Below are positions 25,918 through 53,402 of a stretch of 64,000 bases of DNA, piece after piece. Within the stretch, counting starts at the first letter, position 1. Every line of letters begins with the position of its first letter. Under the pieces are notes generated by a model. That model made no database searches, had not been told where the DNA came from, and saw only the letters and a list, made by a program, of their open reading frames with translations. The DNA is from a virus. The DNA is taken from IMG/VR virus record IMGVR_UViG_3300048918_000175, positions 4,010 through 68,009 of that record; one strand, written 5' to 3'. The translations under genes were made by a program, and so were the position numbers.

Positions 25918-26265
25918 TCATGCGTGGCCTCTGCAGGTTGGTGCCGTCGCTTCTTTGCGACATGTGGAGCAAGTAGGCGGGCCGAACATCGTGCAGCAGG
26001 GGAATTGGTGATCACCCCAGATGCAGTGGGTGAGCAGCATGTACCACCAATTCAACTCACGTCTCCAGCGCGGGACCTTCGGGGCGAACCTGACAGTGAA
26101 CGCCAATCCAGTCTCAACTGACATGGGCTGGACTGAACAGATATCCGCCGCAAAGAGATTCGGCATTGCACGCCTCGCGAGATTCACGAGGAGCGGGTCA
26201 TACGTCTCCGGCGGAGAGGGTGGATCGGGAAAGCACGTCGCCTCGATCAGGTATGGGCGAATCAT
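25918..26265 (-). CDS. Small protein containing a major capsid (gp23) Gol-peptide-like segment
   Basis: DPLLVNLARRAMPNLFAADICSVQPMSVETGLAF; start re-set to MIRPY. Confidence 0.65.
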   Translation of the reverse strand: MIRPYLIEATCFPDPPSPPETYDPLLVNLARRAMPNLFAADICSVQPMSVETGLAFTVRFAPKVPRWRRELNWWYMLLTHCIWGDHQFPCCTMFGPPTCSTCRKEATAPTCRGHA

Positions 26266-26446
26266 GGTCTCTTGCGCATCTTCGGTGCCGGATACCCACG
26301 GAACTTGCGGTATCCCGAGGCCTTCGTGTGGACAACGAGGGCACACTTTGAACAGACATGGACAGAGTTCTTCTTGATCCCCGCGTACGGTCCGGGAAAG
26401 TGGTGCTTGCAGGCTTTCTGCTTTGCTTCCCGTTCATTCATCTTGG

Positions 26447-26770
26447 CTACGTCTGAATACATTCCGCATTCTCCCATTCTGATTTTCCTAGACCACACTT
26501 GAAACAAGTGCCCGCGCCTTCGTACCTCTGGTGCATCTGTTTTAGTTTGCCGAGGGGCGGCGCGGGCACATAGTCAGGATTCTTCTCGGCGAACACCTCG
26601 TCCAGCAGATTGTCAAGTACCTTTCGGCACTGAGCCTTCGCGGCCGTCGCGCGGTCGATATCGTGCTCCCTCCAGCCAGGAGCCTGATAGTCCGAATAGG
26701 CTTTCGTCAACCGCGCCTGTGCGGCAGCGTAATTGCTGATGGCCGCTTCCAGTTTAGCGCGTGTGACCAT
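26447..26770 (-). CDS. Hypothetical protein
   Basis: Operonic ORF. Confidence 0.55.
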   Translation of the reverse strand: MVTRAKLEAAISNYAAAQARLTKAYSDYQAPGWREHDIDRATAAKAQCRKVLDNLLDEVFAEKNPDYVPAPPLGKLKQMHQRYEGAGTCFKCGLGKSEWENAECIQT

Positions 26771-26981
26771 TCAATGCTCGGAAGATTGAATCGTTGATGC
26801 GGTCTGTTTCTCGGTTGTACTTTTCCCAATACACCCGCTTTTCTTCGTTGCGGATGTACTCCTTTCGCGCGCGGCACACAGGATCCCTTTCACACATATC
26901 CGCTTTATAGACAAGAACCCAGAGGGCAATAATGATCGCGCCGAGTACAAAGCAAGAGATTTTCGCAAGTTTCTCACTCAT
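26754..26981 (-). CDS. Membrane-anchored hypothetical protein
   Basis: N-terminal TM helix. Confidence 0.5.
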   Translation of the reverse strand: MSEKLAKISCFVLGAIIIALWVLVYKADMCERDPVCRARKEYIRNEEKRVYWEKYNRETDRINDSIFRALNGHTR

Positions 26982-27166
26982 AGCTCACCCGTCTCTTGGA
27001 TGTTGTAAATGTCGTGAATCCAGATACGCCCATGCGAGTCGTGATGCTCCCAGTCGATCACCTTCCCGAGGCGACGTTCAAAGAAGTCCTGGGCTTCATA
27101 GAGCGTGTGCTTGTAACCCAGGACTTCCTCGCGATACATGAGGACGTAGATGGACGGATTCATGGT

Positions 27167-27646
27167 CTAGAAGAACCCGTAGCCCGAGTTCGGATAGCGA
27201 TAGGTCGGCCAGTACGATGTGGGGTTCTTGGCCCGCGCCGCATCGTGCTTCTTCTGTTCACGCTCGCGCCGCTTGTCCTCAGCCTCACGCTTCCGCTTCT
27301 CTGCGCGCTGCTTGGGCGACAGGTCGAATTCCTCAACGAAATTACCGATTGAGTCGCCTGCGTCGATTGAATCCGACGCGACACCGAAGGCATGATGAAT
27401 CTCATACTCAATCAGCGATCCATCCACCGTCGTCACGCCGCATTCCTTGAGGGCGCGAGCAACGGGGCAGTTGCACGCTTTACCCTGCTCGCCTCGTGGG
27501 AGTTCCTTCAGTGCTGGGAGCTTTGCCTTCTTGCGAAGTTCGTTGACCTTCTTGAGTGCAGCGCGATAGATCGGCGCAGGCACCGTCGTCTTGGGATCAA
27601 CCAACTTCACTTTCTTCTTGGCCATGATGAATCTCCTTGTTATCAA
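27167..27646 (-). CDS. Hypothetical protein
   Basis: CNCPVARAL motif; AAGGAG RBS before MAKKK. Confidence 0.6.
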   Translation of the reverse strand: MITRRFIMAKKKVKLVDPKTTVPAPIYRAALKKVNELRKKAKLPALKELPRGEQGKACNCPVARALKECGVTTVDGSLIEYEIHHAFGVASDSIDAGDSIGNFVEEFDLSPKQRAEKRKREAEDKRREREQKKHDAARAKNPTSYWPTYRYPNSGYGFF

Positions 27647-27861
27647 CTGAATTGGTACGGTGATACACGGATGTAGCAGAAGGTCGTGTCCTCATCTCCC
27701 ACAACAGCCCAGGCACGTGACACCACGATGTAAGGCTCGCCACGAATGTTGATTAGCTCGCCGCTAGCAGGAGCTTGTGCCATAAAGAAGAATCCGAGAA
27801 GTTTGTCGGTCTCCTCTTTATGCGATGTAACAAGATGAAAACGTACCTTGAGCTTTGTCAT
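27643..27861 (-). CDS. Hypothetical protein, probably leaderless
   Basis: ATG lies 7 nt after the -10 box of TTGACC-17-TAGATT (27868-27896). Confidence 0.55.
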   Translation of the reverse strand: MTKLKVRFHLVTSHKEETDKLLGFFFMAQAPASGELINIRGEPYIVVSRAWAVVGDEDTTFCYIRVSPYQFS

Positions 27862-27956
27862 GCTTGTAATCTACAAGGATCGAGGACTAAGGTCAAGGCG
27901 GGTTGAGTCCGTTTGTGAACTCAACCCGTCCGTTTCAGAATCCGATTTCCATTGCG

Positions 27957-28151
27957 TTATCCCAATAGCACTTCTGCACGCTCGCGCAGTCGTCGGATGT
28001 GATCTTCACGACAGACTTCGACGTAATTGAAATTGGCGTCGGTATGCAGAATGTATTCCTTGCCATCAACGACGCGAACGGTTTCGGCTTGGAGGGCGTT
28101 TTCGATGAGCCGATCCCGCGTTTCGATGAGCGATTGTTCTCTGACGGACAT
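27957..28151 (-). CDS. Hypothetical protein
   Basis: GAGGAG RBS. Confidence 0.55.
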   Translation of the reverse strand: MSVREQSLIETRDRLIENALQAETVRVVDGKEYILHTDANFNYVEVCREDHIRRLRERAEVLLG

Positions 28152-28190
28152 TAGATGATCTCCTCTATGTGTTCGGTGTTCAGATACTTA

Positions 28191-28330
28191 GTTGCCTGAT
28201 CCTTCGACCAACGACGCACTGTCCACAAAGACCTGAACAGGTGCCAGAGAGGCTCCTCACGAAGGAATTTGCAAACGATCCGGCAATCGTGAATTGATTC
28301 AGGTGTAGTCGTGCGACCGAAGATAGCCAC
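28191..28330 (-). ncRNA. Candidate rod-shaped structured RNA
   Basis: Nested complementary blocks TTCGGTCG/TGGTCGAA, ACGAC/GTCGT, ACCTGAAT/GTTCAGGT, TGCCGGA/TCTGGCA. Confidence 0.45.
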
Positions 28331-28797
28331 TAGATGATCTCCTTGAGACGATCTGCCGCGTAACTCGCAGCAGGTGACATGGGCTTGATCTTGGGGTCTA
28401 TGCCGCAGACACCCTTGATGTAACCCATTGCTTGGTTGACGATGCCGTTGGACTTGTGGAAGTCCTCGGGGTTGAGGTCAAGGTGAATCTCAACATCGCG
28501 ATACAGGAGGACGTCCGCGAGCTTGAGGTACAACTCAGCCACCTTGTGCACTTCGGACATGAGGCGGAACTGCGGCGCATCGGCGCGCTTGGTGTAGTCA
28601 GCCTCACGAATGACTTCACCGAACACCTTGCAGCCATGCTGGCCGTCAATGTGAATGACGACGGCGAGCGTGAAGTCTACCATCCAGACGCCACGGATGT
28701 TGATCCGCTCGGAGTCGGCGCCAAGGTAAATCTTCGTCTCCGCAGAACTGTTGCGGATGTAGTCCATTACTACGTCGATATCCATTTGTGCTGGCAT
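28330..28797 (-). CDS. RNase H-like YkuK/DUF458 protein
   Basis: IYLGADS, RLMSEV, EIHLDLN and ASYAAD motifs. Confidence 0.8.
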   Translation of the reverse strand: MPAQMDIDVVMDYIRNSSAETKIYLGADSERINIRGVWMVDFTLAVVIHIDGQHGCKVFGEVIREADYTKRADAPQFRLMSEVHKVAELYLKLADVLLYRDVEIHLDLNPEDFHKSNGIVNQAMGYIKGVCGIDPKIKPMSPAASYAADRLKEII

Positions 28798-28818
28798 TGG
28801 TTCATCCTCAAGTGTTGA

Positions 28819-28891
28819 TGCCCTAGACAGGACTCGAACCTGTGCCTCCGGTTTCGGAAACCGGCACTCTGTCCAACTGAGCTACGAGGGC
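28819..28891 (-). tRNA. tRNA-Arg(CCG)
   Basis: Cloverleaf; anticodon arm CCGGT-TTCCGAA-ACCGG. Confidence 0.85.
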
Positions 28892-28896
28892 AATGA

Positions 28897-29106
28897 TTAG
28901 CGTGGTTTGTTACTGTGATCGTCAAAGTACCACCCACACATATGTCCGGCATGGGCTACGGAGACTGTACGAATGGTTGCCGTATCCAGCGGAGTCTGCG
29001 CGAAACTGAGCAACCTCTCGCACTGCGCCCGTGGAACATATCCGTCGTCAAAGTCACAACCCATTACAGCGAGGGCCAAGAGACCCATTACAAGGTATTT
29101 CTTCAT
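28897..29106 (-). CDS. Small lipoprotein-like protein
   Basis: MKKYLVMGLLALAVMGC; similar to the 29103 ORF. Confidence 0.55.
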   Translation of the reverse strand: MKKYLVMGLLALAVMGCDFDDGYVPRAQCERLLSFAQTPLDTATIRTVSVAHAGHMCGWYFDDHSNKPR

Positions 29107-29327
29107 TTGGTGCCCAGAATCTGAGCGTTCCCTGCCTCTCTCAGATACGTGGCGCAGGCATACGCACCTTCTTGTGGACGTGCGTTCCTCACGAACATTG
29201 AATCCTGTTGTGTCCGCGCGAGGGCAATGAGGGTCGTGCATGCCTTGAAATTAAAGGCACTTTCGCTGACTGTATCACACCCCGTCAGGAGCGCGACCAT
29301 TCCTAGTACCATGCAAATTCGCTTCAT
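29103..29327 (-). CDS. Small lipoprotein-like protein
   Basis: MKRICMVLGMVALLTGC; GAGGAGG RBS. Confidence 0.55.
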   Translation of the reverse strand: MKRICMVLGMVALLTGCDTVSESAFNFKACTTLIALARTQQDSMFVRNARPQEGAYACATYLREAGNAQILGTK

Positions 29328-29338
29328 GTGATTCCTCC

Positions 29339-29569
29339 TCACTCGTACCGTCGCCGCCGACATTCGGCTTTGAACTGGTTGTATGGTGCCCCTGCATTGT
29401 GCTCGCGCTGGGCGTCATTCGCCCAAATGTATCCACACCAACACTGATGCCGCCAGAACTTGACGGGAATGTCAATGGGTGAATAGTGCGACTCAACCGC
29501 CATTGCGCGATCTATGGGTTCTACCATCTTCCCACAGACGGGACATGCTTCTCTCACTTTCGTACTCAT
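29339..29569 (-). CDS. Small zinc-binding protein
   Basis: CPVCG and CWCG; GAGGTG RBS. Confidence 0.55.
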   Translation of the reverse strand: MSTKVREACPVCGKMVEPIDRAMAVESHYSPIDIPVKFWRHQCWCGYIWANDAQREHNAGAPYNQFKAECRRRRYE

Positions 29570-29585
29570 GTTTCACCTCATTCAG

Positions 29586-29659
<74 letters not shown>

Positions 29660-29826
29660 GTGTGGATGGGCAACGCCATGTCCGCTCCCACCCTGCTAAA
29701 TCCTTCCGGGTACTCGTAAAGGGGTCCAGGTTCTGCCCTCGCCCCGCCTCTGTCATCGTGGTATCTCACCATGTTTTAACGACTGACAAGAGGTTTTCCA
29801 CCGCTGCATGGGGACTTCTGTGCTAC

Positions 29827-30183
29827 TTATACCTTGAGCCCGAAGCGTTCCGGGGTGTTCTTGGGCTTTGGTGAGCGCATCTCATCGAACGTGCGACACC
29901 GAACCTGTTCAATCTGCTTCAGTGGGAGTCTGAGACCCGCAAACTTCAACTCCCACTCCCATCGTGTCTTACCTGACTCAAAATCAACCCAAGAGACGGC
30001 CTTCCGTTCGCGCACAATCGCGCCAATCTCATTGATGATGACCCACTCAGGATCAATCGCGGGGTTTCGAACCCAATCCTGTTTGGGCTTTCGCTTGAAG
30101 AACGTCTTGCGCCGTTTCCAAAGCCACCCGATCAGGTCAATTCCAAACGCGAGCACAAAGCCCCAAAACATTCCTTCGATCAT
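29827..30183 (-). CDS. Membrane-anchored hypothetical protein
   Basis: N-terminal TM helix. Confidence 0.55.
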   Translation of the reverse strand: MIEGMFWGFVLAFGIDLIGWLWKRRKTFFKRKPKQDWVRNPAIDPEWVIINEIGAIVRERKAVSWVDFESGKTRWEWELKFAGLRLPLKQIEQVRCRTFDEMRSPKPKNTPERFGLKV

Positions 30184-30368
30184 GGTATTGGTACCGTCTC
30201 AGCAAAATGTGGATCGACCGCGTGCAATGCGTTCTGTGCAGCGAGTTCCTCTTTCACGAGGTTTATCTCTCGCCGTGCTTCCTTCGTGGTCATCTTCGAT
30301 ACGTCAATCGCGAAGATGCGACCCCTCGGACGATTGTTGTAGTCCTGTGGTAGTTTATCCATTTCCAT
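30180..30368 (-). CDS. Mini-protein with a portal (gp20)-like segment
   Basis: RGRIFAIDVSKMTTKEA resembles T4-like portal RRIFYIDVGNMPxxKA. Confidence 0.45.
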   Translation of the reverse strand: MEMDKLPQDYNNRPRGRIFAIDVSKMTTKEARREINLVKEELAAQNALHAVDPHFAETVPIP

Positions 30369-30370
30369 AA

Positions 30371-30442
30371 TAGCGCATAGGGGAATCGAACCCCTCTCCC
30401 CCGGATGAGAACCAGGCGACCTAGCCGATAGTCGAATGCGCC
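30371..30442 (-). tRNA. tRNA-Glu(CTC)
   Basis: Anticodon loop TTCTCAT. Confidence 0.85.
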
Positions 30443-30697
30443 GTTCAGGGAGCCGTGTGAGTGTCCTGGCTTGACGATCCCACCCCGACCCCCTTGGTAC
30501 TACGAAACGAGCGGTGCGTTGAGTGCCATCATCTGGCGACCCGTCTGAATGTCGAGTGCCTCGACGTACTTCGGTCCCAACTCAGCCGCTGCCGCCGAGA
30601 GAATCGTGTGCTCCGCCGTCGGCAGAATCGCGCCCGTGCTACCCACAAAGACAAGCTTCGGTTCCATGATATAGCCTCCTTGAAGTTGACCTACAAA

Positions 30698-30805
30698 TGG
30701 AGAGGGGTGGAGTCGAACCACCGCCTGACTCTCGACTTGGTACCAGTCTACGGTCTTTGACACGGATTAAGATCCGCCGCTCTGTCCCACCTGAGCTACC
30801 TCCCC
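30698..30805 (-). ncRNA. tRNA-like RNA with a 6-nt anticodon loop and a ~39 nt variable insert
   Basis: Intact acceptor, D and T arms; GCGGA-TCTTAA-TCCGT. Confidence 0.65.
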
Positions 30806-30807
30806 AA

Positions 30808-30892
30808 TGCACCCAGCAGGATTCGAACCTGCACCCCACTGAAGGGACAGGGCTCTCGACCCTGCGTGTCTACCAGTTCCGACCATGAGTGC
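30808..30892 (-). tRNA. tRNA-Leu(GAG)
   Basis: CAGGG-TCGAGAG-CCCTG; long variable arm. Confidence 0.85.
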
Positions 30893-30893
30893 G

Positions 30894-31145
30894 TTACACT
30901 GCCTCAAGCTGCGAACAACCTTCAGCGAGCACCATCAGCTTGCCGTCTGCCATGCGTAGCCCGTACCAAACTACTTCGTACAACTTCCCTACATGAATCC
31001 TTACATCTTCAACGACACACTCCTCACCCGTGGGGTAGAAGTCGATTATCTCGCGTGTCGCGGGATCAATGTGTCGAATATTATACGTGAGCCTGACACG
31101 ATCACCCACCTTGAACTCTGGCGCAGCCTTCTCAATTACGGGCAT
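30894..31145 (-). CDS. SH3-like hypothetical protein
   Basis: FKVGDRVRL motif. Confidence 0.55.
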   Translation of the reverse strand: MPVIEKAAPEFKVGDRVRLTYNIRHIDPATREIIDFYPTGEECVVEDVRIHVGKLYEVVWYGLRMADGKLMVLAEGCSQLEAV

Positions 31146-31425
31146 GTGGGTATGTCGCGTACAGACAGGAATTGATCTTGAAGATTACATCCCAATCGAC
31201 TAGGTCGCGTGCGAACAACTCATCCCGCAGCGCAATCAGAGAGGTGACAATCGTGTCCGACTCACTTAGTTTCTTGGACGTGACTATCGTGTCCTTCGGC
31301 GTCGTGGCATCCATCTTCATCCTCCGGGGTGTCGTTGCACTCACAGCATGGATGCTCGGGCCAACATGAGCAGTGTCGTTTTCTGTCCTCGGTGCATTCG
31401 TTTCTCATGTCAGAAAGATAGCTCC

Positions 31426-32070
31426 TCAGACCGCAGACCTCAATCCCTCGGTTGTCCGAAAGTTCAGATCGAATTTCCGAATTGGGTAGTTTCCCCGGTG
31501 CGCGTCAAAGTACGCATCGAAATCTTCAATCGCCCCTTGCATGTTGTAGTGTCCATTCAGCCCAACGAGACCCCGATTCTCTGCAATAAACCGCTCCGAG
31601 GACGTCGTCCTGAACGCCCTAGGCTCCCGATCCGCATAGAGCAAGGCCAGCGTACACTTTGAGAACGATGACCATTCTAATGCGGTCCCAGGGACAGCTT
31701 TCATCGAATGCCAATGTGAGTCCGATTCTTTGAACCACTCGACAACGCGAGAAAATGCATTTGGGAATAAATCCCAGGATGCGCGCATCATCTTTGGCCC
31801 GATGCCGTTCCCACGATATGCAGGAAGGACATACACGCCTCGCGTGCGCAGAACGGTATCGGAGATATTGTAGACAGAGGTGTAACCCTTTGTCACGCCA
31901 TCTTCAACCCACGCACACGGGAAGCAGAGAATGTCCTTCGCCCACCGCTCGCGCGGATACTGCACGATGCCGAATGGGTTATTCCATATCGGAATCGTCT
32001 CGGGTTGTTTTGTGTGCCAGTGGTCTGCCATACCTTCGCAGAACTCGGACCAACGAATGACGTGGAGCAT
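31426..32070 (-). CDS. GNAT-family acetyltransferase
   Basis: VYVLPAYRGNGIG acetyl-CoA binding motif A. Confidence 0.7.
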   Translation of the reverse strand: MLHVIRWSEFCEGMADHWHTKQPETIPIWNNPFGIVQYPRERWAKDILCFPCAWVEDGVTKGYTSVYNISDTVLRTRGVYVLPAYRGNGIGPKMMRASWDLFPNAFSRVVEWFKESDSHWHSMKAVPGTALEWSSFSKCTLALLYADREPRAFRTTSSERFIAENRGLVGLNGHYNMQGAIEDFDAYFDAHRGNYPIRKFDLNFRTTEGLRSAV

Positions 32071-32085
32071 ATCTCACATGTTGAA

Positions 32086-32157
32086 TAGGTCCTGATGGAT
32101 TCGAACCAACATCTCCTGGGTCAAAGCCAGGCGTCCTAACCGTTGAACGAAAGACCT
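32086..32157 (-). tRNA. tRNA-Gln(TTG)
   Basis: CCTGG-CTTTGAC-CCAGG. Confidence 0.85.
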
Positions 32158-32161
32158 GCAG

Positions 32162-32234
32162 TGCTCCGTATCGGATTCGAACCGATATCGCTGCCTTACC
32201 AAAGCAGTATGTTGACCGTTGACACTAACGAAGC
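32162..32234 (-). tRNA. tRNA-Thr(GGT)
   Basis: CTGCT-TTGGTAA-GGCAG. Confidence 0.85.
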
Positions 32235-32237
32235 TAG

Positions 32238-32310
32238 TGCCCGCATTAGGATTCGAACCTAAATTCTGGAGTTAGAAGCTCCATGTGCTATCCAGTTGCA
32301 CTATGCAGGC
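32238..32310 (-). tRNA. tRNA-Arg(TCT)
   Basis: TGGAG-CTTCTAA-CTCCA. Confidence 0.85.
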
Positions 32311-32314
32311 GTAT

Positions 32315-32449
32315 TGGTGGACCAGTGTCAGGAGATCATCCTGACTTCGCCGCCTATGGCCCAAAGGCGTAGTAGAAAGGTCTAGAACCTTCTACTCTGG
32401 GCTTGAGAGCAGCATCATAGGCCGAAGCCTCCGCTGAGAGCAATCACCA
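32315..32449 (-). ncRNA. Candidate structured RNA ending in CACCA
   Basis: Stems TGGTG/CACCA, GCCTATG/CATAGGC, GCCCAGAG/CTTTGGGC, GTCAGGA/TCCTGAC. Confidence 0.5.
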
Positions 32450-32454
32450 GGCAT

Positions 32455-33276
32455 TTAATCCAACCAATCGTGCTTGTACGGACCGATATCATCGAACGCT
32501 TCCTCGTCGTACTTCCCGCGCCGCAGGAGATTGTTAATCTCAGAGCGATACTGCCGACGATTGTGCTTCACAGCCCACGTGCGGCCCTTCTTCTTGCCAG
32601 GCATCGGCCCGAACCACATCTCACGCTGCATCTCCCACTTCCGCTCACACTTGAAGCAGAGATAGGTCCGATCGTGATAGACCCACTTCGGCTTCGTCTC
32701 TTTCGTTTTCTGAAACTCCCAGAACGTGATGGGCTCAGGCACACGCGGAGGATTGAGCGTGCTCCAATCGAGCGATCCATTCTTGAGCTTCCAGCCCCCA
32801 ATGCGATACCGACGCCATGCGCGCTCGGCCTCGCCGTACTTCGCTTCATACTCCGCCCGAATTGCCTTCCACATCGCGTTATGTTCCTCGTCCTGTCGAA
32901 CGATATCCTTCGCGACGTGCTTGCACTGTGGGCAGAATGTGGCGTGCTTCTGCCGAGAGTAATACTTGTTACTGACGGGAGCCCAGGTCTTGAGATCCTT
33001 CCAGTAGTCCTTCTTGGTGCGGTCATTCGACCGCTTGATCGTGCCGTCGTAGGCAACGATCCACTTCTTCTTTCCGTGTGACACTTTGACGCTCCTGGTT
33101 TGGGTACCTAGATTGTCATAATGCCTCCAATGGTTTGTAGCGAGTGGATTCGGTGCTTGCCCAAAACATTCGTTCTGGATGCAATCTTCACATTCCGGAT
33201 ATTCGATTGAAGACCAGTCGTCAACGATCATATGACGCGAGGGAAGTCCGAGCAACTTCGACTCCGGAGTACTCAA
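32455..33276 (-). CDS. Basic Cys-containing hypothetical protein (start uncertain)
   Basis: Long ORF with CxxC motifs. Confidence 0.55.
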   Translation of the reverse strand: MSTPESKLLGLPSRHMIVDDWSSIEYPECEDCIQNECFGQAPNPLATNHWRHYDNLGTQTRSVKVSHGKKKWIVAYDGTIKRSNDRTKKDYWKDLKTWAPVSNKYYSRQKHATFCPQCKHVAKDIVRQDEEHNAMWKAIRAEYEAKYGEAERAWRRYRIGGWKLKNGSLDWSTLNPPRVPEPITFWEFQKTKETKPKWVYHDRTYLCFKCERKWEMQREMWFGPMPGKKKGRTWAVKHNRRQYRSEINNLLRRGKYDEEAFDDIGPYKHDWLD

Positions 33277-33469
33277 CGATGACCCACTGAGACCTCACAA
33301 CAGGTGTCTTGATGGAACTGTAGCGGGTATGTGGATGATTGTACGTCTCACCCAGCGATGGTCGGTTCTTATACATCTTTCCGTTCTTGGAGAGATTTTC
33401 CGGCGCGTTATGCTTCGACGGCTTGAAGAACATCCCAGACGGTAGGTGCAACAGTTTGTAGAATCTCAT
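33221..33469 (-). CDS. Hypothetical protein
   Basis: AAGGAG RBS; NLSKNGKMY motif. Confidence 0.6.
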   Translation of the reverse strand: MRFYKLLHLPSGMFFKPSKHNAPENLSKNGKMYKNRPSLGETYNHPHTRYSSIKTPVVRSQWVIVEYSGVEVARTSLASYDR

Positions 33470-33489
33470 ATCGTCTCCTTCTCAGTGAG

Positions 33490-33562
<73 letters not shown>

Positions 33563-33577
33563 ACATTCCTACTAAAG

Positions 33578-33661
33578 CGGAGAGCCTGGGATTCGAACCC
33601 AGATGTCCTTGCGGATGCCAGATTTCAAGTCTGGTGCAATAGCCAGTTCTGCCAACTCTCC
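33578..33661 (-). tRNA. tRNA-Ser(TGA)
   Basis: CCAGA-CTTGAAA-TCTGG; variable arm. Confidence 0.9.
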
Positions 33662-33663
33662 AA

Positions 33664-34038
33664 TTATTCTTCCACAGGTCTTGCTGTCACAATGGCGGAG
33701 ATCAATTTGAACTCAGACACCGTCTTGTCCTTCTCGACTGTCCCAATGCCTGAGACAGAATAGACAGCCGCCTCTGCCTTATCCATCATCATAAGTGCTC
33801 GCCCGCATGGGGTGTCGAGCACCCGCCCATCAAAATACCAATCACCGTCAATCGTCTCAATCGTGCCAACGCCAGCGACGTTCGCGAGAAGGACGCTTGT
33901 CGAGGGATTTGATCCCAACGTCAGAAAGACTTCCTTCCCCTTATAATCAGCGATTGCCTTCTCCATCACTGCCTTCGGATAAATGCGTCCGTTGACAGTG
34001 GGTGTATCGGCGCGAAGAAGTATGGCGTGTATTTGCAT
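33664..34038 (-). CDS. Truncated, degenerate prohead protease (gp21)-like protein
   Basis: NGRIYPKAV, LDTPCG and SVSGIG motifs; the GELGHP His position reads LTLGSNP. Confidence 0.6.
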   Translation of the reverse strand: MQIHAILLRADTPTVNGRIYPKAVMEKAIADYKGKEVFLTLGSNPSTSVLLANVAGVGTIETIDGDWYFDGRVLDTPCGRALMMMDKAEAAVYSVSGIGTVEKDKTVSEFKLISAIVTARPVEE

Positions 34039-34043
34039 GACTC

Positions 34044-34072
34044 AATATAACTCAACCCACATCCTTCATCAA
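34044..34072 (-). promoter_or_regulatory. Sigma70-type promoter internal to the tRNA array
   Basis: TTGATG-17-TATATT, with an ATG immediately downstream. Confidence 0.55.
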
Positions 34073-34090
34073 GACGTGGGTTGTCCAAAG

Positions 34091-34163
34091 TGCCCATGGA
34101 GGGATTCGAACCCCCATTACAGGTTTCGTAGACCTGTGTGCTATCCGATTCTACTACATGGGC
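34091..34163 (-). tRNA. tRNA-Arg(ACG)
   Basis: CAGGT-CTACGAA-ACCTG. Confidence 0.85.
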
Positions 34164-34167
34164 ATAA

Positions 34168-34253
34168 CGGAGAGCCTGGGATTCGAACCCAGAAATCCCT
34201 TTCAGGACGCTAGTTTTCGAGACTAGTGCAATAGCCAGTTCTGCCAACTCTCC
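34168..34253 (-). tRNA. tRNA-Ser(CGA)
   Basis: CTAGT-CTCGAAA-ACTAG. Confidence 0.9.
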
Positions 34254-34270
34254 AATTTTCGTACTACAAG

Positions 34271-34356
34271 CGGAGTGTGAGGGATTTGAACTCTCACGTC
34301 CTTTCGGACCCACCGTTTAGCAAACGGGTGCGACACACCATCTTCGCCGACACTCC
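34271..34356 (-). tRNA. tRNA-Ser(GCT)
   Basis: Loop TTGCTAA; long variable arm. Confidence 0.85.
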
Positions 34357-34456
34357 AGGGGCGGCTTCCGATCACGACGTTTCCCATACCCTGCGGCCGC
34401 AAGGCATGCGTTCGTGTGTGGCGCTTGTGGACCACCTTAATCAACCGGACACCGAG

Positions 34457-34528
34457 ATCCCCGAATCGGCTTCGAACCGACGACTCACCCTTACGAGGGG
34501 CGTATTTTACCAGCTAAACTATCAGGGA
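34457..34528 (-). tRNA. tRNA-Thr(CGT)
   Basis: CGCCC-CTCGTAA-GGGTG. Confidence 0.8.
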
Positions 34529-34539
34529 ACAGCAACAAG

Positions 34540-34611
34540 CGGGTCGTACGGGAATCGAACCCGTCTCTCTCCCGTGACAGGGGAGTATTCTAGCCGATAA
34601 ACTAATGACCC
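34540..34611 (-). tRNA. tRNA-Asp(GTC)
   Basis: CTCCC-CTGTCAC-GGGAG. Confidence 0.9.
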
Positions 34612-34647
34612 AAGTTAACCTACTTTCCAAATCGTACTAACTTACTA

Positions 34648-34719
34648 TGGGAACCGTGGGGATCGAACCCACCCCTTCAGGATTTCACCCTGACGTACGA
34701 CCAACTATACGAAGTCCCC
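34648..34719 (-). tRNA. tRNA-Phe(GAA)
   Basis: TCAGG-GTGAAAT-CCTGA (unusual G32). Confidence 0.75.
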
Positions 34720-34726
34720 GAACCTA

Positions 34727-35710
34727 CTACACACCAATCTGCTTGCGTTTCGCCTTCGACACCTTGAGCAGCGCGCCACGCAAGTTCCGTTCCTTCACGA
34801 TGACGATACGAATGCCGCGCCAGAACCCAGACTTCTCTGAGCCACGTCCTGCATCGTTCCGCATCTGCACCCAGACGTTTTCACCCACTCCCTCAAAATC
34901 TTCAACCGACCGATAGAGCTTCATGCAATTGACTGTCACCAGTCCCTTGTTCGCATTGAGCGCAAATTCATGCGGCTGCATTTTCCCCTTCACGATGCAA
35001 CCATTCGGGAGAATGTCTACACCGAATGCCGCTTCCTTGATTTCTGCATCCGTTGCTTCAACGGCAATGGGTGGATCAATCTTGTACCCGCCCACTCCAA
35101 TGTCGATCAACTGAGTGAGTCCACCCTTCAGTGCCCACTCAATAACCTTTTTCGCTTTGTCGCGCCAGATCGAATCAGCCGATGCAAGCTGGTCGCCGTT
35201 CTCACCCTTCAGCGAGATGGGAACATCACCCTTCGCGGTCGTGAGAATGAAGTCAGCCTTCTTGCCCGTACCCACACCGTCCTTCTTGGTGCCCTTCTTG
35301 CCTGTTTCCTTGATCTTCGTGACACCGCGCACCATGAACTTGCGGGTGCCATCTGTGAACAGAATGTCAAGTACCGGCATCAGCTTCAGCAGGTCCTTGA
35401 TGTGATGATGGAAGCGATCTTCTGCCATCCCACCCTTGTTCTGGGCAGTGAACTTCACGAACCGCGAGCGATCCTTGACCGTGATCGTGAACCCCTCGGC
35501 CGTGATGACGTTCTTGACCAGCTTGGGCTTCGATCCCGCGAGTGCCTCGAAAATCTTCAGTGCAACCTTGTCAACAAGCGTTGGTGCAACGAGGACGTCG
35601 AATGCCTTCGGCCCGACAGGCTTCTGTTCCTTCTGTCCTAGCTTTGCAACCAATGCTTGCAGATGATGGAGCGACAACTTTGCCATGTGCAGTCCTTGAG
35701 GGGTCTGCAC
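34727..35710 (-). CDS. PD-(D/E)xK-like nuclease-fold protein (start probably MAKLS)
   Basis: AE...KKADF...ISLK motif; CTAAATA late box at 35711-35717. Confidence 0.6.
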   Translation of the reverse strand: MQTPQGLHMAKLSLHHLQALVAKLGQKEQKPVGPKAFDVLVAPTLVDKVALKIFEALAGSKPKLVKNVITAEGFTITVKDRSRFVKFTAQNKGGMAEDRFHHHIKDLLKLMPVLDILFTDGTRKFMVRGVTKIKETGKKGTKKDGVGTGKKADFILTTAKGDVPISLKGENGDQLASADSIWRDKAKKVIEWALKGGLTQLIDIGVGGYKIDPPIAVEATDAEIKEAAFGVDILPNGCIVKGKMQPHEFALNANKGLVTVNCMKLYRSVEDFEGVGENVWVQMRNDAGRGSEKSGFWRGIRIVIVKERNLRGALLKVSKAKRKQIGV

Positions 35711-35719
35711 TATTTAGAG

Positions 35720-35792
35720 TGCGGGTGACGAGGGTCGAACTCGTATCTCTTGGGTGGAAGCCAAGCATGTTAGCCATTGTCACCACACCCGC
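35720..35792 (-). tRNA. tRNA-Gly(TCC)
   Basis: CTTGG-CTTCCAC-CCAAG. Confidence 0.9.
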
Positions 35793-35806
35793 ATTGTACT
35801 ACAGAG

Positions 35807-35879
35807 TCAGGTGGTCGGGGATTGAACCCGAGCCCCCGGCTTCACAGACCGGTACTCTACCAATTGAGCTACGCACCTG
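35807..35879 (-). tRNA. tRNA-His(GTG), atypical acceptor stem
   Basis: CCGGT-CTGTGAA-GCCGG; bulged acceptor stem. Confidence 0.7.
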
Positions 35880-35883
35880 TTAA

Positions 35884-35999
35884 TGGTTGCTGAAAAAGCT
35901 GACGAAAGCCCCGATCAAGCTAGACAATTACGGCCCTACCGTCGCCCGACCATGCAGGCTAGTTCCGTACCTTTCCTCATGTCGTTGTGACAGCAACCA
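35884..35999 (-). ncRNA. Candidate structured RNA closed by a 9 bp stem ending ACCA
   Basis: TGGTTGCTG/CAGCAACCA, GAC..GAAAG/CTTTCGTC. Confidence 0.5.
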
Positions 36000-36001
36000 A
36001 G

Positions 36002-36074
36002 CTGGGACAGAAGGAGTCGAACCTTCATCTTCCTGATTAACAGTCAGGAGACTTGCCAATTAGCCCACATCCCA
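36002..36074 (-). tRNA. tRNA-Asn(GTT), U1-A72 type
   Basis: CCTGA-CTGTTAA-TCAGG. Confidence 0.85.
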
Positions 36075-36081
36075 ATACAAA

Positions 36082-36279
36082 CTACGCGTCCCGCGACCGC
36101 AAGTTCCAATCGTAGACGTTCTCTTCCACCGTGCCATCTTCGAGGCGAATGTCGTACTGACCAGGCATTCTGCCGCAGCAATCACACCCATAGTCAAACG
36201 CTTCGACAACACATCGGAGGATCGTTGCAGGAACATCGGGACAATCTTCGTACCAAACCTTCTCGTCATCGTCGAACAT
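36082..36279 (-). CDS. Small hypothetical protein
   Basis: GAGGAGG RBS; CDCC motif. Confidence 0.55.
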   Translation of the reverse strand: MFDDDEKVWYEDCPDVPATILRCVVEAFDYGCDCCGRMPGQYDIRLEDGTVEENVYDWNLRSRDA

Positions 36280-36297
36280 AAGCCCTCCTCAAGTTGA

Positions 36298-36369
36298 TGC
36301 TCTGCCTCGGCTTCGAACCGAGCCCTAAAGGGTAAAAGCCAATTGTGCCTCCAACAACACTTGCAGAGC
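36298..36369 (-). tRNA. tRNA-Lys(TTT), weak anticodon stem
   Basis: Good acceptor and T arms; ATTGG-CTTTTAC-CCTTT has two U-U mismatches. Confidence 0.65.
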
Positions 36370-36374
36370 GTAAG

Positions 36375-36448
36375 CCCCGGGTGAAGGATTCGAACCCTCA
36401 GCGCATGGATTTGGAGGCCAGCATGTTAGCCAGTTACACCAACCCGGG
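36375..36448 (-). tRNA. tRNA-Trp(CCA), weak anticodon stem
   Basis: CTGGC-CTCCAAA-TCCAT. Confidence 0.7.
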
Positions 36449-36455
36449 ATGAAGC

Positions 36456-36584
36456 ATTGTCGTGGCGAGTCTCCCATTTATCTCGCACCGGGCTGAAAGC
36501 CGCATAGCCCTGTGACGCCAGACACGGAATATTGACGGTACCGTGCCCCACACCAGACGTTCCGTCCAAACATCTCACGACAAT
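36456..36584 (-). ncRNA. Candidate multi-branched structured RNA
   Basis: Closing stem ATTGTCGTG/CACGACAAT; inner stems GGCACGG/CCGTGTC, GGGCT/AGCCC, GCGAG/CTCGC. Confidence 0.45.
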
Positions 36585-44601: not shown

Positions 44602-45012
44602 TTATAGGCGCGAGAGCCACGTGACGTGATTGCGTCTCACTCGCACTGAGATCCACGCATTGTACCACTTGTCGGGGTGCTCAAGGACCTCATGCTGGAA
44701 CTGTAATTTGGCCTCGTAGTAACTGCATTCCCCAAGTGAGTAGCAGATGCGGAGGATCGTGCGCGTGAAGTTCTCGGCCCCGAGGGTTGCCACATCGGTT
44801 GCAATCTCGTCAGACGAGCCGTAGTAGGTCCGCCAGTCTGATTCGACCTTGAATTTCTTTTTCTTCTTCTTGACTTGCTTGCTTTTGGAGAAAAAGAATC
44901 GCTTCTTGCCGATGTATGACTTCCCCGATAGCGTGTTGGAGATGAGGTACACGAAACCAACAGCTTTCTCGGGGATTGCTTCTAGCGGGGCACCATCGAA
45001 CACCCAGTCCAT
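44602..45012 (-). CDS. GIY-YIG endonuclease (T4 endonuclease II-like)
   Basis: GFVYLI...YIGKK...ESDWRTYYGSS...E..Q...YN. Confidence 0.85.
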   Translation of the reverse strand: MDWVFDGAPLEAIPEKAVGFVYLISNTLSGKSYIGKKRFFFSKSKQVKKKKKKFKVESDWRTYYGSSDEIATDVATLGAENFTRTILRICYSLGECSYYEAKLQFQHEVLEHPDKWYNAWISVRVRRNHVTWLSRL

Positions 45013-50453: not shown

Positions 50454-50852
50454 TTACTCCTTTGCAAGTCCAAGTGCTTTGGCGATGTTCGGCTTAAAAT
50501 ACGTGTCCGGCTTGAGAATCTTTCCGTCGTCGCGACGAATGACCTTTCCATCAACGGTCTTCGACATATTGGACGCGCGAATCTCATCCCATACCGGACT
50601 GATATTTATACCGAGGGCGTTGCAGAGCCCGAGCACAACCCAGATGAGGTCCCCCGCACCGTCGGCGACACCCACGATGTTGCCAGCGTCCCATTCGTCC
50701 ATGAGTTCCGTGAACTCTTCCTCGACCAACGCCCTGTAGAGAATGGCGAGATGCGACGGTGGCTCAAGGCCAGAATCGCCGACGGTGTGACGTGTTGCCT
50801 GTCCGCACACTTCTTGAAATGTGCGGACGTCTTCCTGGAGTTGGTTCTTCAT
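50454..50852 (-). CDS. MazG-like / PRA-PH nucleotide pyrophosphohydrolase
   Basis: EEEFTE...ADGAGD...SNMSK...RDDGKILKP; start re-set to MKNQL. Confidence 0.85.
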   Translation of the reverse strand: MKNQLQEDVRTFQEVCGQATRHTVGDSGLEPPSHLAILYRALVEEEFTELMDEWDAGNIVGVADGAGDLIWVVLGLCNALGINISPVWDEIRASNMSKTVDGKVIRRDDGKILKPDTYFKPNIAKALGLAKE

Positions 50853-51211
50853 TCGATGACAAGGGTGAGAGACTTGACGACAGCGCGGAACAGGTAATCC
50901 TTCCGCTTCTGCTCGGGTGGGAGTTGGTCGTACGGAACAATGCACGGATGCGTCTTGAAGCCTTCGCTCTTGGTGGGACCGTATACCCAGCCGCCAGCAA
51001 CCTTGAAGTCAACCCACGACTGGTGTTGATCTTCTGCGGTGAGCGCAGAGCCATCAAGGTACTTGCGAACGCCATCAATCGCAGAGTCGCGCTGCCAATC
51101 TGCCGCGTCTTCCCAGTCCTTCTGTGAGAAGTCGCCGAGTGATTCGCAGTATGCCTTGTTCGCCTGGTGCACAGTCCGCGCAATATCGTTGAGTTTGATT
51201 ATGCTTTCCAT
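50849..51211 (-). CDS. RyR-domain protein
   Basis: HQSW...GWVYG...THPCIVPYDQLP. Confidence 0.75.
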   Translation of the reverse strand: MESIIKLNDIARTVHQANKAYCESLGDFSQKDWEDAADWQRDSAIDGVRKYLDGSALTAEDQHQSWVDFKVAGGWVYGPTKSEGFKTHPCIVPYDQLPPEQKRKDYLFRAVVKSLTLVIE

Positions 51212-51214
51212 TTT

Positions 51215-52054
51215 TTAGATTTTCGTGTAGGGAGTTTTGTACTCAGTGATCCAGTCGAGGTCTTGTCCCACTGTCTTGATGTAGTCCTCAAAGTAGACAG
51301 GTGCAAGTGGCTGGAGTGCTTCAAAGATTGCTTCTGCGAGACGACGAATCTCGGGCTCGGCATGACGGTCAGAGCGTTGTTCGATGACGTTCCGCCACAT
51401 GCGAAGACCTGCTGACCAGACACCCGCCGTCTCAAGACCGTTCGGGAGCACGTTTCGTGCCTTGCCTCGCGCCCACTTGCGAAGTGGCACACCCTTGAGA
51501 TTCTTGGGGTTCAGCTTCATCAACTGCTCAACATGTGCCTTATATATCTGGAAGTCATCGCGCGCCGCCTCAACCAAACCCGCGACGAGGTACTGTTCAG
51601 CGTCGTATGGGGTAATGTCGGGGTGATAACTCTCGCCGTCGATCATGATCCAGTTGTTCTCCATGGTGAAGCCGTGCTTCTTCCAGAGTGCCGCGTAGTA
51701 CGGCTCAAGCACGATGGAGCCCTCGCCATTCTCAAAGTCGGCATACCGGGTTGACTCTTGCGAGATGTTGAGACCATGGCGATTCAACTCAAGCGAGGCG
51801 GCACGCGTGATGCCTGAAATGTCGAGGACATATTGCATGTGTGCGAGAACCGAGCCGTGCTTCGATGACACAACGGCACGTTGGTTCGCGAGATTCGCAC
51901 GCCCATCTTTACCCTTCGATCGGTAGCACCGCTTGGCGGCATACGCGCCGATCTTCTCGCCATCCGTACCGTCATCGGGGATGAGGAAGTCGGGATTCTC
52001 AATGAACTGCGGCTTTCCAATGACTCGGATTGTGGGTTTGGTTACGACTAGCAT
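51215..52054 (-). CDS. thyX: Flavin-dependent thymidylate synthase
   Basis: HGSVL, ELNRH...SQESTRY, ARNVLPN and AEPEIR motifs. Confidence 0.9.
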   Translation of the reverse strand: MLVVTKPTIRVIGKPQFIENPDFLIPDDGTDGEKIGAYAAKRCYRSKGKDGRANLANQRAVVSSKHGSVLAHMQYVLDISGITRAASLELNRHGLNISQESTRYADFENGEGSIVLEPYYAALWKKHGFTMENNWIMIDGESYHPDITPYDAEQYLVAGLVEAARDDFQIYKAHVEQLMKLNPKNLKGVPLRKWARGKARNVLPNGLETAGVWSAGLRMWRNVIEQRSDRHAEPEIRRLAEAIFEALQPLAPVYFEDYIKTVGQDLDWITEYKTPYTKI

Positions 52055-52527
52055 TCATCATCTCCTTTCTTCTGTAGATATGCCTGTACTTGTGTGGTCA
52101 TGATTGCTGCGAGTTCCGCCTCACGATCTAGCCCAGCGACTCCGTATAGCGCAACGACGAAATCGTGATCCACGCCCGCGTGCGTCTTGACCCCATCAAG
52201 GACGATCACCTTTCTCGGCCCCGACTCATACGAGAACTCATGCTGGAAGGTTACGGTGTGGGCGGGGAAGTTCTTGCGCAAGGCCTGGAGTAGAAGTTCA
52301 CCCCGCACCTCCTCGCGAAGGATGGCGGCAAGTTCTGCATCGGGATCCATGCCGAATACCTTCTTCACCTCAACATCGAGATTGTAGAAGATCCTAGTTT
52401 GCTTCCCGTCAATCACCAACACGTTTCTCGGGTAAAACGAGTTTGGATCGGGTGTGGTTTCTACAAAGTCGAATGTGTGATTCGGAAACTCGTGCCGCAA
52501 ATCACGAAGTACATAGTTTGCTTCCAT
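52048..52527 (-). CDS. Two-repeat protein with gp23-like GxDxxAELxxI segments
   Basis: FGMDPDAELAAILREE and GLDREAELAAIMTTQ. Confidence 0.6.
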   Translation of the reverse strand: MEANYVLRDLRHEFPNHTFDFVETTPDPNSFYPRNVLVIDGKQTRIFYNLDVEVKKVFGMDPDAELAAILREEVRGELLLQALRKNFPAHTVTFQHEFSYESGPRKVIVLDGVKTHAGVDHDFVVALYGVAGLDREAELAAIMTTQVQAYLQKKGDDEC

Positions 52528-53402
52528 TAGTCATTCCTCAATGAGTTCAGTGGGACAGCCCTTTGATTTAGCATAGGTAAGCATGTCGCGAGTTCCCTTC
52601 GACTCAGCAAAGTGATGATGGAAGGCGATGACCAAATCCGGGGTCTCGGTGTCAAACATATGCCTGTTTCTAATAGGACCCGCTCCTCGTCGATACCTAG
52701 CCCAGTCGGCTGGATATTCTCGAACGTCAAATCCCAAGACGGTACCCATAGCTCCCGCAAGAGTGTCAACTCCCCGGGCCCCACCGTGTACCAGAATGGT
52801 GCCGTTCGGAAACTCCATGAGCCGTTTGAGCATTGCCTCAGGATTGAACCCCTTTCGGTCCCCGGTAACGAGTATTTTGATTGCCATGATGTGTTCCATA
52901 CCTCCCGAATAATGTCCTTGTTGATTTCTTCGGTGAGCATTCGCACCAACTCATCTTCAGCGTCGAATCCGTGATAGGCTTGAAGGTCTTGCGCGTGTTC
53001 AATCGTGTACGTTGCACAGAGCTTTGGGCGTTCGTGGAACGCCCAATACCACCTATCACGAACCTCATTCTTCTCAAACGTCTTGTAGAACCAGTTCTTG
53101 AACCGATACTTGAGCAACCAGGCTTTGGAGCGAATGCGATTGCGAATACGACGAGGATGAAATTTATCATACCACTTCTCGGGGCGACGGCAGCATCCGG
53201 GTCCACAACGCCAGTCATCGTCGGGGTCTTGATAATCCTCGTCGTTGTCCTCGTTCTCTTCCTCTTCAGGGAGGAACTCGACACGGTCATCGTCACAACC
53301 CCAATCACCCCGCCCGTTCGGAAAGAGTTTGATGGGTTTCGCAGTCACCTGAGAACTGGTCATGACCACTTCAATGACAGGAACGTCTAACAGTTTTTCC
53401 AT
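52527..53402 (-). CDS. Protein with a gp23-like segment; 3' part overlaps the SLOG gene
   Basis: LCATYTIEHAQDLQAYHGFDAEDELVRML. Confidence 0.5.
   Translation of the reverse strand: MEKLLDVPVIEVVMTSSQVTAKPIKLFPNGRGDWGCDDDRVEFLPEEEENEDNDEDYQDPDDDWRCGPGCCRRPEKWYDKFHPRRIRNRIRSKAWLLKYRFKNWFYKTFEKNEVRDRWYWAFHERPKLCATYTIEHAQDLQAYHGFDAEDELVRMLTEEINKDIIREVWNTSWQSKYSLPGTERGSILRQCSNGSWSFRTAPFWYTVGPGELTLLRELWVPSWDLTFENIQPTGLGIDEERVLLETGICLTPRPRIWSSPSIITLLSRRELATCLPMLNQRAVPLNSLRND
52531..52887 (-). CDS. YspA/SLOG (DUF2493-like) protein
   Basis: ILVTGDR, VHGGARGVD, PADW, AGPIRN and SKGT motifs. Confidence 0.8.
   Translation of the reverse strand: MAIKILVTGDRKGFNPEAMLKRLMEFPNGTILVHGGARGVDTLAGAMGTVLGFDVREYPADWARYRRGAGPIRNRHMFDTETPDLVIAFHHHFAESKGTRDMLTYAKSKGCPTELIEE

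Follow-up and report, generated by a model that had tools for sequence, protein, structure and literature searches.

Putative accessory genes made from pieces of head-morphogenesis genes in a T4-like virus genome

The IMG/VR virus record IMGVR_UViG_3300048918_000175 (68,009 bases, judged 32% complete) carries, within the 64 kb analysed here (the window), four small open reading frames (ORFs) that derive from genes for T4-like head proteins: three resemble the capsid protein gp23 and one the prohead protease gp21. Each ORF is named after its lowest coordinate in the window. Our tentative reading is that a large T4-like phage has made small accessory genes from pieces of head-morphogenesis genes, and that the exapted products act as binding mimics of elements that the host reads. 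Sequence comparison shows the origin and truncation of the pieces, the lost histidine, their recurrence in other phages and the conservation of the mini-gp21; that the mini-genes are translated, that their products bind, and what they bind, we infer. Two kinds may be distinguished. In the first, an otherwise unrelated scaffold would carry a single conserved element of the gp23 P domain (for ORF 25918 the Gol stretch, for ORF 52527 a strand and spine-helix, which ORF 52048 has in duplicate); in the second, the core of gp21 would persist minus its catalytic His and both ends (ORF 33664).

25918-26265, minus strand: 115-aa gp23 Gol-type mini-gene (P0001), the short form of ORF 25918-26346, recognised by Pfam Gp23, our own profile and ATGA coupling
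33664-34038, minus strand: 124-aa truncated, His-less homologue of gp21, the prohead protease (P0003), recognised by PHROG, tblastn and a structural model
52048-52527, minus strand: 159-aa protein (P0004) of two ~75-aa repeats, with a gp23-like turn and helix start at 52294-52377 and 52081-52149
52527-53402, minus strand: 291-codon ORF (P0005) with a gp23 strand and spine-helix stretch at 52887-53024, recognised by Pfam Gp23
52531-52899, minus strand: 122-aa SLOG (YAcAr) gene inside ORF 52527-53402, recognised by Pfam PF10686 and codon score

Results

The Gol stretch of gp23 in a gene of its own

Profiles for the Gol and helix stretches were built from 67 gp23 sequences (66 full-length proteins from IMG/VR loci, together with that of Synechococcus phage S-RSM4) and run against the 1,442 stop-to-stop frames of at least 30 amino acids (aa) in the six frames of the whole record. 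Coding potential was scored with a codon model for which 13 long genes, themselves scoring 0.20-0.40, served as training set. A preliminary description, drawn from the letters alone, had placed a gp23 Gol region in ORF 25918, a second gp23 helix in ORF 52527 and twice in ORF 52048, a degenerate gp21 protease in ORF 33664 and a gp20 portal segment in ORF 30180. The searches agree that the first four derive from head genes, with the proviso that ORF 52527 is secure in its likeness and ambiguous as a gene; the portal segment does not rise above chance and is treated separately below.

ORF 25918 matches Pfam Gp23 (PF07068) with an E-value of 1.2e-9 (38.5 bits against a cut-off of 24.4), its residues 48-87 corresponding to positions 3-42 of the 376-position model. 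It also matches phrog_138 (E 1.7e-10) and our own 67-sequence profile (E 2.7e-17), and shares 58% identity over 38 aa with residues 82-119 of S-RSM4 gp23. The Gol-like stretch occupies 26086-26205 and is followed by a tail rich in Cys, Trp and His. At two positions that are near-invariant in our alignment the sequence departs from gp23: the Gly that precedes VQPM is Ser, and the Pro that precedes TG is Glu.

The real gene is probably the 115-codon form. Its ATG (26265-26263) shares bases with the TGA of the ORF upstream, as does its TGA (25920-25918) with the ATG of the ORF downstream, a form of coupling that is usual where phage genes are packed. The codon score is positive only at about 26310-26190, around the gp23-like part. 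The ORF directly upstream (26262-26462, minus strand, 66 aa) is Cys/His-rich, like the tail of the mini-gene, and the two may be small zinc-binding early proteins. A predicted complex between E. coli EF-Tu and the ORF 25918 protein returned a score of 0.00, a 'no answer' that speaks neither for nor against binding.

A duplicated helix element in ORF 52048

ORF 52048 matches no Pfam or PHROG family, and the evidence for its gp23 element comes from its internal structure and from our own profile. The protein is a tandem repeat (E 3e-12, 38% identity) in which the gp23-like stretch ends each unit, and the longest block that is identical between the repeats is the helix-start motif itself. On the gp23-helix profile the whole sequence scores E 2.4e-7, with domain E-values of 0.0026 and 0.029 for the two units and the next, noise, match at E 0.7. 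None of 4,000 shuffled versions reached this score (the best obtained 9.3 bits against 27.1 observed), and the third and fifth best segments in a tblastn search with S-RSM4 g23 fall on the two repeats. Coding potential is normal, the codon score of 0.19 being in the range of real genes (0.20-0.40 for the training genes). A single-sequence AlphaFold2 (AF2) model, with a predicted local distance difference test (pLDDT) score of 65, gives each unit a strand, a short helix and a long helix. No matching fold emerged, either from VIA-align against 48,161 chains (best Z 5.9, no standout family) or from the Atlas structure search (template-modelling (TM) score <0.5).

Part of the repeat recurs elsewhere in the window.

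41273-41719, minus strand: 148-aa ORF (P0006) in which the first half of the ORF 52048 repeat occurs for a third time, at the N-terminus, recognised by BLASTP

The two proteins share 38% identity over 47 aa (E 1e-4). ORF 41273 has no gp23-like helix and belongs to no Pfam family.

A spine-helix stretch that ends where a SLOG gene begins

ORF 52527 matches Pfam Gp23 (E 3e-11, 43.8 bits against the same cut-off of 24.4; residues 127-172 on model positions 149-198) and our own gp23-helix profile (E 1.3e-12). The N-terminal part is acidic and then rich in Trp, Arg and Lys. In the Atlas feature search, residues 1-175 were placed with Gp23 clusters at 0.85-0.87, under the lead level of 0.9. A complete Gp23 fold would take up most of the 376-position model, in a protein of about 400-520 aa; only positions 3-42 are present in ORF 25918 and 149-198 in ORF 52527.

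The gp23 likeness stops exactly at the ribosome-binding site and start of the SLOG gene, which matches PF10686 (E 5.2e-9, 36.2 bits against a cut-off of 28.2) and has a positive codon score in its own frame. Scores in the frame of ORF 52527 are positive to about codon 170, after which the SLOG frame dominates. Logan contigs of run X1, an independent assembly at a depth of ~7-8, are identical to the record over 52681-53450, and thus the overlap is not an indel error of the record. X1, possibly from the source sample, was the one DNA run listed for this sequence, with no RNA run beside it. Long overlaps of this sort are unusual: in this phage's genes, 116 of 5,390 windows of 122 codons (2.2%) are open in the shifted frame, and both selection and chance fit. 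A programmed frameshift fusing frame 0 to the SLOG frame was considered and dropped, there being no slippery heptamer, by eye, in 52899-52950. ORF 52527 is ambiguous, its coding potential being poor and 370 nt of it being shared with a real gene; it fits the class of stand-alone capsid fragments only on the condition that the product comes from its first ~170 codons.

The SLOG gene itself sits between primase and thyX. In conflict systems, SLOG domains have a link with nucleotide signalling, and this gene and the two capsid-piece genes may form a small accessory islet.

A truncated gp21 without its catalytic histidine

ORF 33664 lies between two tRNA genes (tRNA-Ser ends at 33661, tRNA-Arg starts at 34090). 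Its residues 1-105 match phrog_207, the head-maturation protease family (E 2.9e-6), and S-RSM4 g21 finds it by tblastn over 116 aa that span the whole ORF (E 2.2e-6). The match to Pfam S77 falls under the cut-off of 27 bits (E 1.4e-4, 21.8 bits; 21.2 bits in the six-frame search). Aligned with 24 gp21 sequences from IMG/VR gp23 loci, the ORF is 23-31% identical over its full length and retains the NGRxY, TPxG and SxxGxG blocks. At 124 aa, against 207-223 aa for these homologues, it is without ~30 N-terminal and ~85 C-terminal residues.

Ser43 replaces the His of GEL(G/N)HP, which is invariant in all 24 homologues, Gly56 replaces the second conserved His, and the sole His of the protein is residue 4. 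The sequence alignment with the T4 gp21 chain of known structure (PDB 5JBL), which has Ala at the GELN-x-P position, suggests that the GEL(G/N)HP column corresponds to His85 of T4 gp21, which we take to be catalytic. The catalytic His of gp21 (S77) would accordingly be missing from ORF 33664. Ser94 stands in an invariant Ser column, which may or may not be that of the T4 nucleophile.

An AF2 model of the protein (pLDDT 80; predicted TM score (pTM) 0.71) has an assemblin-like fold, with the qualification that it was built on a gp21 alignment, which biases the fold toward gp21. Foldseek places T4 gp21 (5JBL) first, with a query-normalised TM score (TMq) of 0.81 and an E-value of 2.4e-6, and herpesvirus proteases next. 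The codon score is 0.21, within the training range. A word search retrieved one homologue, P0159, from another sample: a protein of 120 aa with the same start that is 33% identical end to end and has no His among the 118 residues shown in the pairwise alignment. Because a His-less protein of the same length and start exists at this distance, the truncated form is old and has been kept, which argues for a maintained gene.

Position of the pieces in the record

In a tblastn control, 14 S-RSM4 proteins (g3, g13-g23 without g24, uvsY and g55; 12 are virion, assembly or packaging proteins) were compared with the record. Only g23 (two matches, E ~1e-9) and g21 (E 2.2e-6) gave significant matches, all of them at the candidate ORFs; pieces of g22, g20, g18, g19 and g17 were absent, and there are no full-length gp20, gp21 or gp23 genes on the 68-kb record. 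A six-frame search of the whole record with Pfam Gp23 found exactly two pieces, in ORFs 25918 and 52527, and nothing more at E<=10. The statement in the preliminary description that the ORFs lie outside any structural module is therefore true for this 68-kb, 32%-complete record.

Neither do the pieces occupy the position next to g21 and g22 that gp23 has in a head block: the neighbours of the gp23-piece ORFs are small early-type ORFs, primase, SLOG and thyX. A colinear g20-g21-g22-g23 block was rejected, the order in the direction of transcription being gp23-middle, gp21, (gp20?), gp23-N-terminus. An all-against-all BLASTP of the 133 predicted proteins gave no paralogy among the five ORFs of the preliminary description at E<=0.01.

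Plausible genes lie nearly all on the minus strand, and G+C is 52-59%. Among the surroundings are T4-type genes for replication and nucleotide metabolism, namely those for primase and ribonucleotide reductase, thyX, three for RNA-ligase-like proteins and one for a MazG-like protein (Pfam PRA-PH). ORF 33664 is part of a long array of tRNA genes.

28817-38730, minus strand: tRNA array of 35 genes, with small ORFs between them

The T4 late-promoter word TATAAATA occurs at 39087-39094, just upstream of this array, with a second match at 50603-50610 (two matches against 0.11 expected). These are the only two matches in a scan of the window, and no such motif stands in front of the head-piece genes.

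This setting bears on one alternative, according to which the pieces regulate the phage's own head assembly by binding nascent gp23, gp21 or scaffold, so delaying or timing folding and assembly. The source elements pack together in the gp23 P domain, and loss of the His need not stop a gp21 core from binding cleavage sites. Several small proteins are present in T4 prohead cores, according to PMC9958956. Against such a role, the genes are found among early, tRNA and nucleotide-metabolism genes with no late-promoter motif in front of them, and ordinary T4-like phages build their heads without genes of this kind. We consider the regulation of own-head assembly quite unlikely.

For the primase, identity reaches 38.7% in cultured phages (the best being cyanophages), 44% in IMG/VR contigs and 47-49% in metagenome contigs. 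Because these identities are low, we place the phage, on its primase, in a distant and isolated T4-like lineage; this isolation limits comparative tests. Megablast of 25000-35000 against phages returned tRNA matches only and no close DNA relative. The sample is labelled as a root metagenome.

Similar mini-genes in other phages

An exhaustive search with the 115-aa form of ORF 25918 gave 267 matches at E<=0.001, of which 150 representatives were listed. All 267 hit the Gol stretch only (query residues ~17-60) and none aligned to the tail, which a repeat protein, P0031, resembles in composition. Most short matches are collinear with full-length gp23 and represent genes truncated at contig ends. 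Among the 150 representatives listed, about a dozen have the look, by eye, of complete small proteins with unrelated flanks (for example P0008, P0009, P0124, P0156 and P0135). Four of them start with a twin-arginine-like leader, three with a coiled coil at the N-terminus; all ten that were scanned match phrog_138, and their clusters at 90% contain one or two sequences each.

A scan of contigs from GTDB genomes gave 54 loci, 53 of which hold ordinary or contig-cut gp23. The remaining locus (L300) has a complete 90-codon frame and is identical to part of G001, an IMG/VR record of 455,147 bases judged 100% complete. Between the late sigma factor (gp55-like) and gp47/gp46 nuclease genes (L300 2100-3681), G001 has three mini-genes of ~84, 86 and 78 aa (A, B and C), with an overlap of 14-26 bases between each of them and the gene upstream of it. 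In mini-gene A the gp23 motif is a GYKG...FYCPYVPL block (phrog_138, E 6.7e-7), in B the Gol stretch (E 1e-16) and in C an IGFKTRYG block (our own C-terminal profile, E 6e-4). The true gp23 of G001 is 21 kb away.

The three share an N-terminal leader, K-x-K/L-N-W-F/L-x3-F-G. Its derivation from the N-terminus of gp23 was rejected (E 0.99 or worse on an N-terminal profile). A leader word of the same type precedes the gp23 stretch of ORF 52527 and stands at the start of P0124, a link that is not statistically secure: a regular expression for the leader has one match in 100,435 aa against 0.035 expected, with one of its arms written after ORF 52527 had been seen, and an expression taken from G001 only misses ORF 52527 by one residue.

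On the canonical Gol profile, mini-gene B scores 69.2 bits and the gp23 of G001 itself 47.2; B holds canonical residues where the phage's own gp23 differs, and A and C do so only at single positions. The pattern, with a Gol mini-gene closer to the canonical motif than the phage's own gp23 is, suggests a target other than the capsid of G001. The same comparison counts against the regulation of own-head assembly. It is also a reason to consider that the mimics, of strand or helix, are weapons against co-infecting T4-like phages, poisoning the folding or assembly of canonical gp23 while the owner is spared by its diverged gp23. The chosen motifs are, in addition, among the best-conserved blocks in the alignment of 67 gp23 sequences. 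However, the pattern comes from one genome and is clear for the Gol mini-gene alone, mini-gene A being level with the phage's own gp23 on the C-terminal profile (34.0 against 33.9 bits), and we hold a role as weapon to be very unlikely.

G002, a relative of G001 with 499,572 bases, contains a 255-codon partial gp23 frame (L315 1162-1926) 268 kb from its true gp23. The frame holds part of the A domain only; over 78 aa its identity to the gp23 of G002 itself is 44%. G001 and G002 have one gp21 match each. On our profiles the true gp23 proteins of G001 (41-47 bits) and G002 (37.5-41 bits) score as low as the fragments in the window, and a reading of these fragments as much more degraded than real gp23 was rejected.

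How widespread are such pieces? In the cultured-phage collection, Gol-type queries matched 1,843, 2,472 and 2,516 records, always at one place per record. In ten further uncultured T4-like records, of which six are near-complete virus records of 164-236 kb and four are contigs from metagenome bins, the matches were full-length only, one record having a gp24-type paralogue as well. A scan for related loci with one of our alignments found 80 loci, 78 with ordinary gp23 (419-488 aa or contig-cut) and two with uncut frames of 293 and 332 aa; the scan with P0109 found one ordinary gp23 locus. By these comparisons, ectopic head-gene pieces are not general in T4-like genomes, being found, in a small and non-random sample, in this record and two giant phages. 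Because they are missing from ~2,500 cultured and 10 uncultured T4-like records, they would appear to be an accessory feature and not a by-product of how T4-like genomes are built. Our literature searches, which did not reach supplementary files, found no paper on natural capsid-fragment genes.

Maintained genes or recombination debris

One alternative is that the ORFs are debris, that is, dead pieces of g23 and g21 which illegitimate recombination carried into early and tRNA regions and which are open by chance. Several observations are as this hypothesis would have it, and most of them at the same time weigh against mimicry. After about residue 60 of 115, the tail of ORF 25918 has junk-like composition and a codon score at or below zero in every frame. 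ORF 52527 has a negative score and junk-like composition after residue 170, and its last ~120 codons (~370 nt) run in another frame through the genuine SLOG gene. The matched stretches are just 40-45 aa long. No orthologue of ORFs 25918, 52048 or 52527 was found, by the exhaustive search, by pattern scans of viral contigs (ORFs 52527 and 25918), by tblastn of the ORFs against 160 primase neighbourhoods (~2.05 Mb) or by word searches with ORF 52048 and with residues 60-200 of ORF 52527, the last being insensitive and missing gp23 too. Mini-genes of the G001 type are absent at the syntenic loci of eight relatives (G002 and seven others) and are hence volatile.

Two further points tell against mimicry in particular. 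Several metagenomic members have twin-arginine-like leaders, a poor fit to a cytoplasmic target. In T4, EF-Tu is the partner that the Gol stretch binds, Lit is activated as a result of Gol even when the peptide stands alone, and a plain copy of Gol would be a trigger and not a decoy.

Debris, on the other hand, would not be expected to include a protein with a same-length homologue in another sample (ORF 33664), or a well-coding duplication that retains its motif (ORF 52048). Nor would a dead fragment be likely to fit exactly between two genes with ATGA overlaps (ORF 25918) or to keep a shifted frame open over 122 codons, as few windows do (ORF 52527). The mini-genes of G001, three in number, are tightly packed and have a leader in common, and debris from head genes is absent from the ~2,500 cultured T4-like records. 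We judge debris to be an unlikely explanation for the set. On these comparisons the balance favours ORFs 33664, 52048 and, probably, 25918 being real accessory genes. The proposal of the preliminary description that the fragments are more than recombination debris is upheld for ORFs 33664 and 52048 and, less firmly, for ORF 25918; for ORF 52527 the case is ambiguous. Its further suggestion, that the fragments may be decoys for sensors such as Lit, CapRel or Avs, would have to face the difficulty that a faithful Gol copy should activate Lit.

Other features of the window

The portal segment of the preliminary description concerned a small ORF in the tRNA array.

30180-30368, minus strand: 62-aa ORF (P0002) adjoining tRNA-Glu, left out of the head-piece set

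Like ORF 33664, it sits 2-3 bases from a tRNA gene. Its match to Portal_T4 (PF07230) is not significant (E 0.13, 11.4 bits against a cut-off of 22.9), and it has no PHROG match, no six-frame match at E<=10 and no tblastn match to the S-RSM4 proteins. It comes first on our own profile of the portal segment (30 gp20 sequences and that of S-RSM4) with an E-value of 0.055; its domain E-value is 0.77 and the next match, noise, is at 0.34. Its likeness to gp20 is therefore unsupported.

Four observations concern other genes. The 136-aa ORF at 44602-45012 (minus strand) has an N-terminus that by eye is like that of GIY-YIG homing endonucleases; it is not next to any head piece, and 58 of the 160 primase loci contain a relative, with identities of up to 54%. 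The interval between thyX and ribonucleotide reductase (50454-51211, minus strand) encodes an RyR-domain protein (PF02026, E 4.7e-11) and the PRA-PH protein (E 5.7e-9; weak MazG, E 0.0088). Two pairs of small genes are paralogous: one at 9423-10252 (minus strand; 46% identity over 136 aa), the other at 180-590 and 13558-13977 (minus strand; 38% over 105 aa). Finally, a Logan contig of run X1 has three extra T at 42500-42501, inside a 380-aa gene (42137-43279), at a depth of 7.2 of 15.1, and may represent an in-frame population variant.

Discussion

If the ORFs are genes, what could their products do? Since they would have no capsid fold and no capacity for proteolysis, they could act only by binding. 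We suppose that they would compete for a partner that normally reads the conserved elements, most likely a reader on the host side; EF-Tu would be a candidate for the Gol stretch, as would defence proteins that recognise short capsid motifs. According to one preprint, short motifs are what Lit and CapRel detect in the capsid protein, and EF-Tu belongs to an Avs7-capsid complex.

Binding mimicry of host-read elements is the reading we favour, tentatively. A more elaborate version seems to us doubtful: large T4-like phages would deploy a panel of mimics, one motif each, of their best-conserved head proteins (capsid strands, the spine helix, a dead protease) as bait against motif-reading (Lit- or CapRel-type) or EF-Tu-dependent defences, or as poison for rival capsids, the owner's capsid protein having drifted from the motif.

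Were the products shown to be mimics, they would be natural probes for what reads conserved capsid motifs in infected cells (Lit, CapRel and Avs-type systems), and would represent a new route by which phages counter capsid sensing or fight rival phages. There is also a consequence for annotation. In big phages, short Gp23 or protease matches risk being written off as fragments or wrongly annotated as 'major head protein', the label of the 128-position family phrog_12830.

Comparison with known systems

One parallel is the system of T4 Gol, EF-Tu and Lit (the latter from prophage e14). ORF 25918 has a stretch homologous to Gol (Pfam Gp23 positions 3-42) apart from the rest of the capsid protein, like the Gol peptide used in experiments; unlike in T4, the stretch belongs to a gene that is separate by nature, is followed by a tail unrelated to gp23 and has two near-invariant positions changed. 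ORF 33664 resembles T4 gp21 (MEROPS S77, PDB 5JBL) in its NGRxY, TPxG and SxxGxG blocks and in its modelled structure, but lacks the ends and the conserved His, scores under the Pfam cut-off and is situated inside a tRNA array.

Duplicates of capsid genes within one genome are familiar from T4 gp24 and from full-length gp23 paralogues. A further record, G006, has two full-length matches, and locus L296, a contig binned with a Bacilli genome, has three full-length gp23 paralogues in tandem (1088-4571; 554, 534 and 546 codons). Such duplicates have the complete HK97 fold, are 437-554 aa long and lie beside gp23, whereas the ORFs described here keep 40-45 aa of that fold. There is also a likeness to the capsid-fragment mini-proteins of metagenomes and of G001: as in these, ORFs 25918 and 52048 are small, lie outside a head block and combine one gp23 element with unrelated flanks. 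The present genome differs from some of the metagenomic examples in being without a twin-arginine-like leader. What sets it apart is that two different gp23 elements, one of which is also duplicated in tandem, occur together with a mini-gp21 in a single genome.

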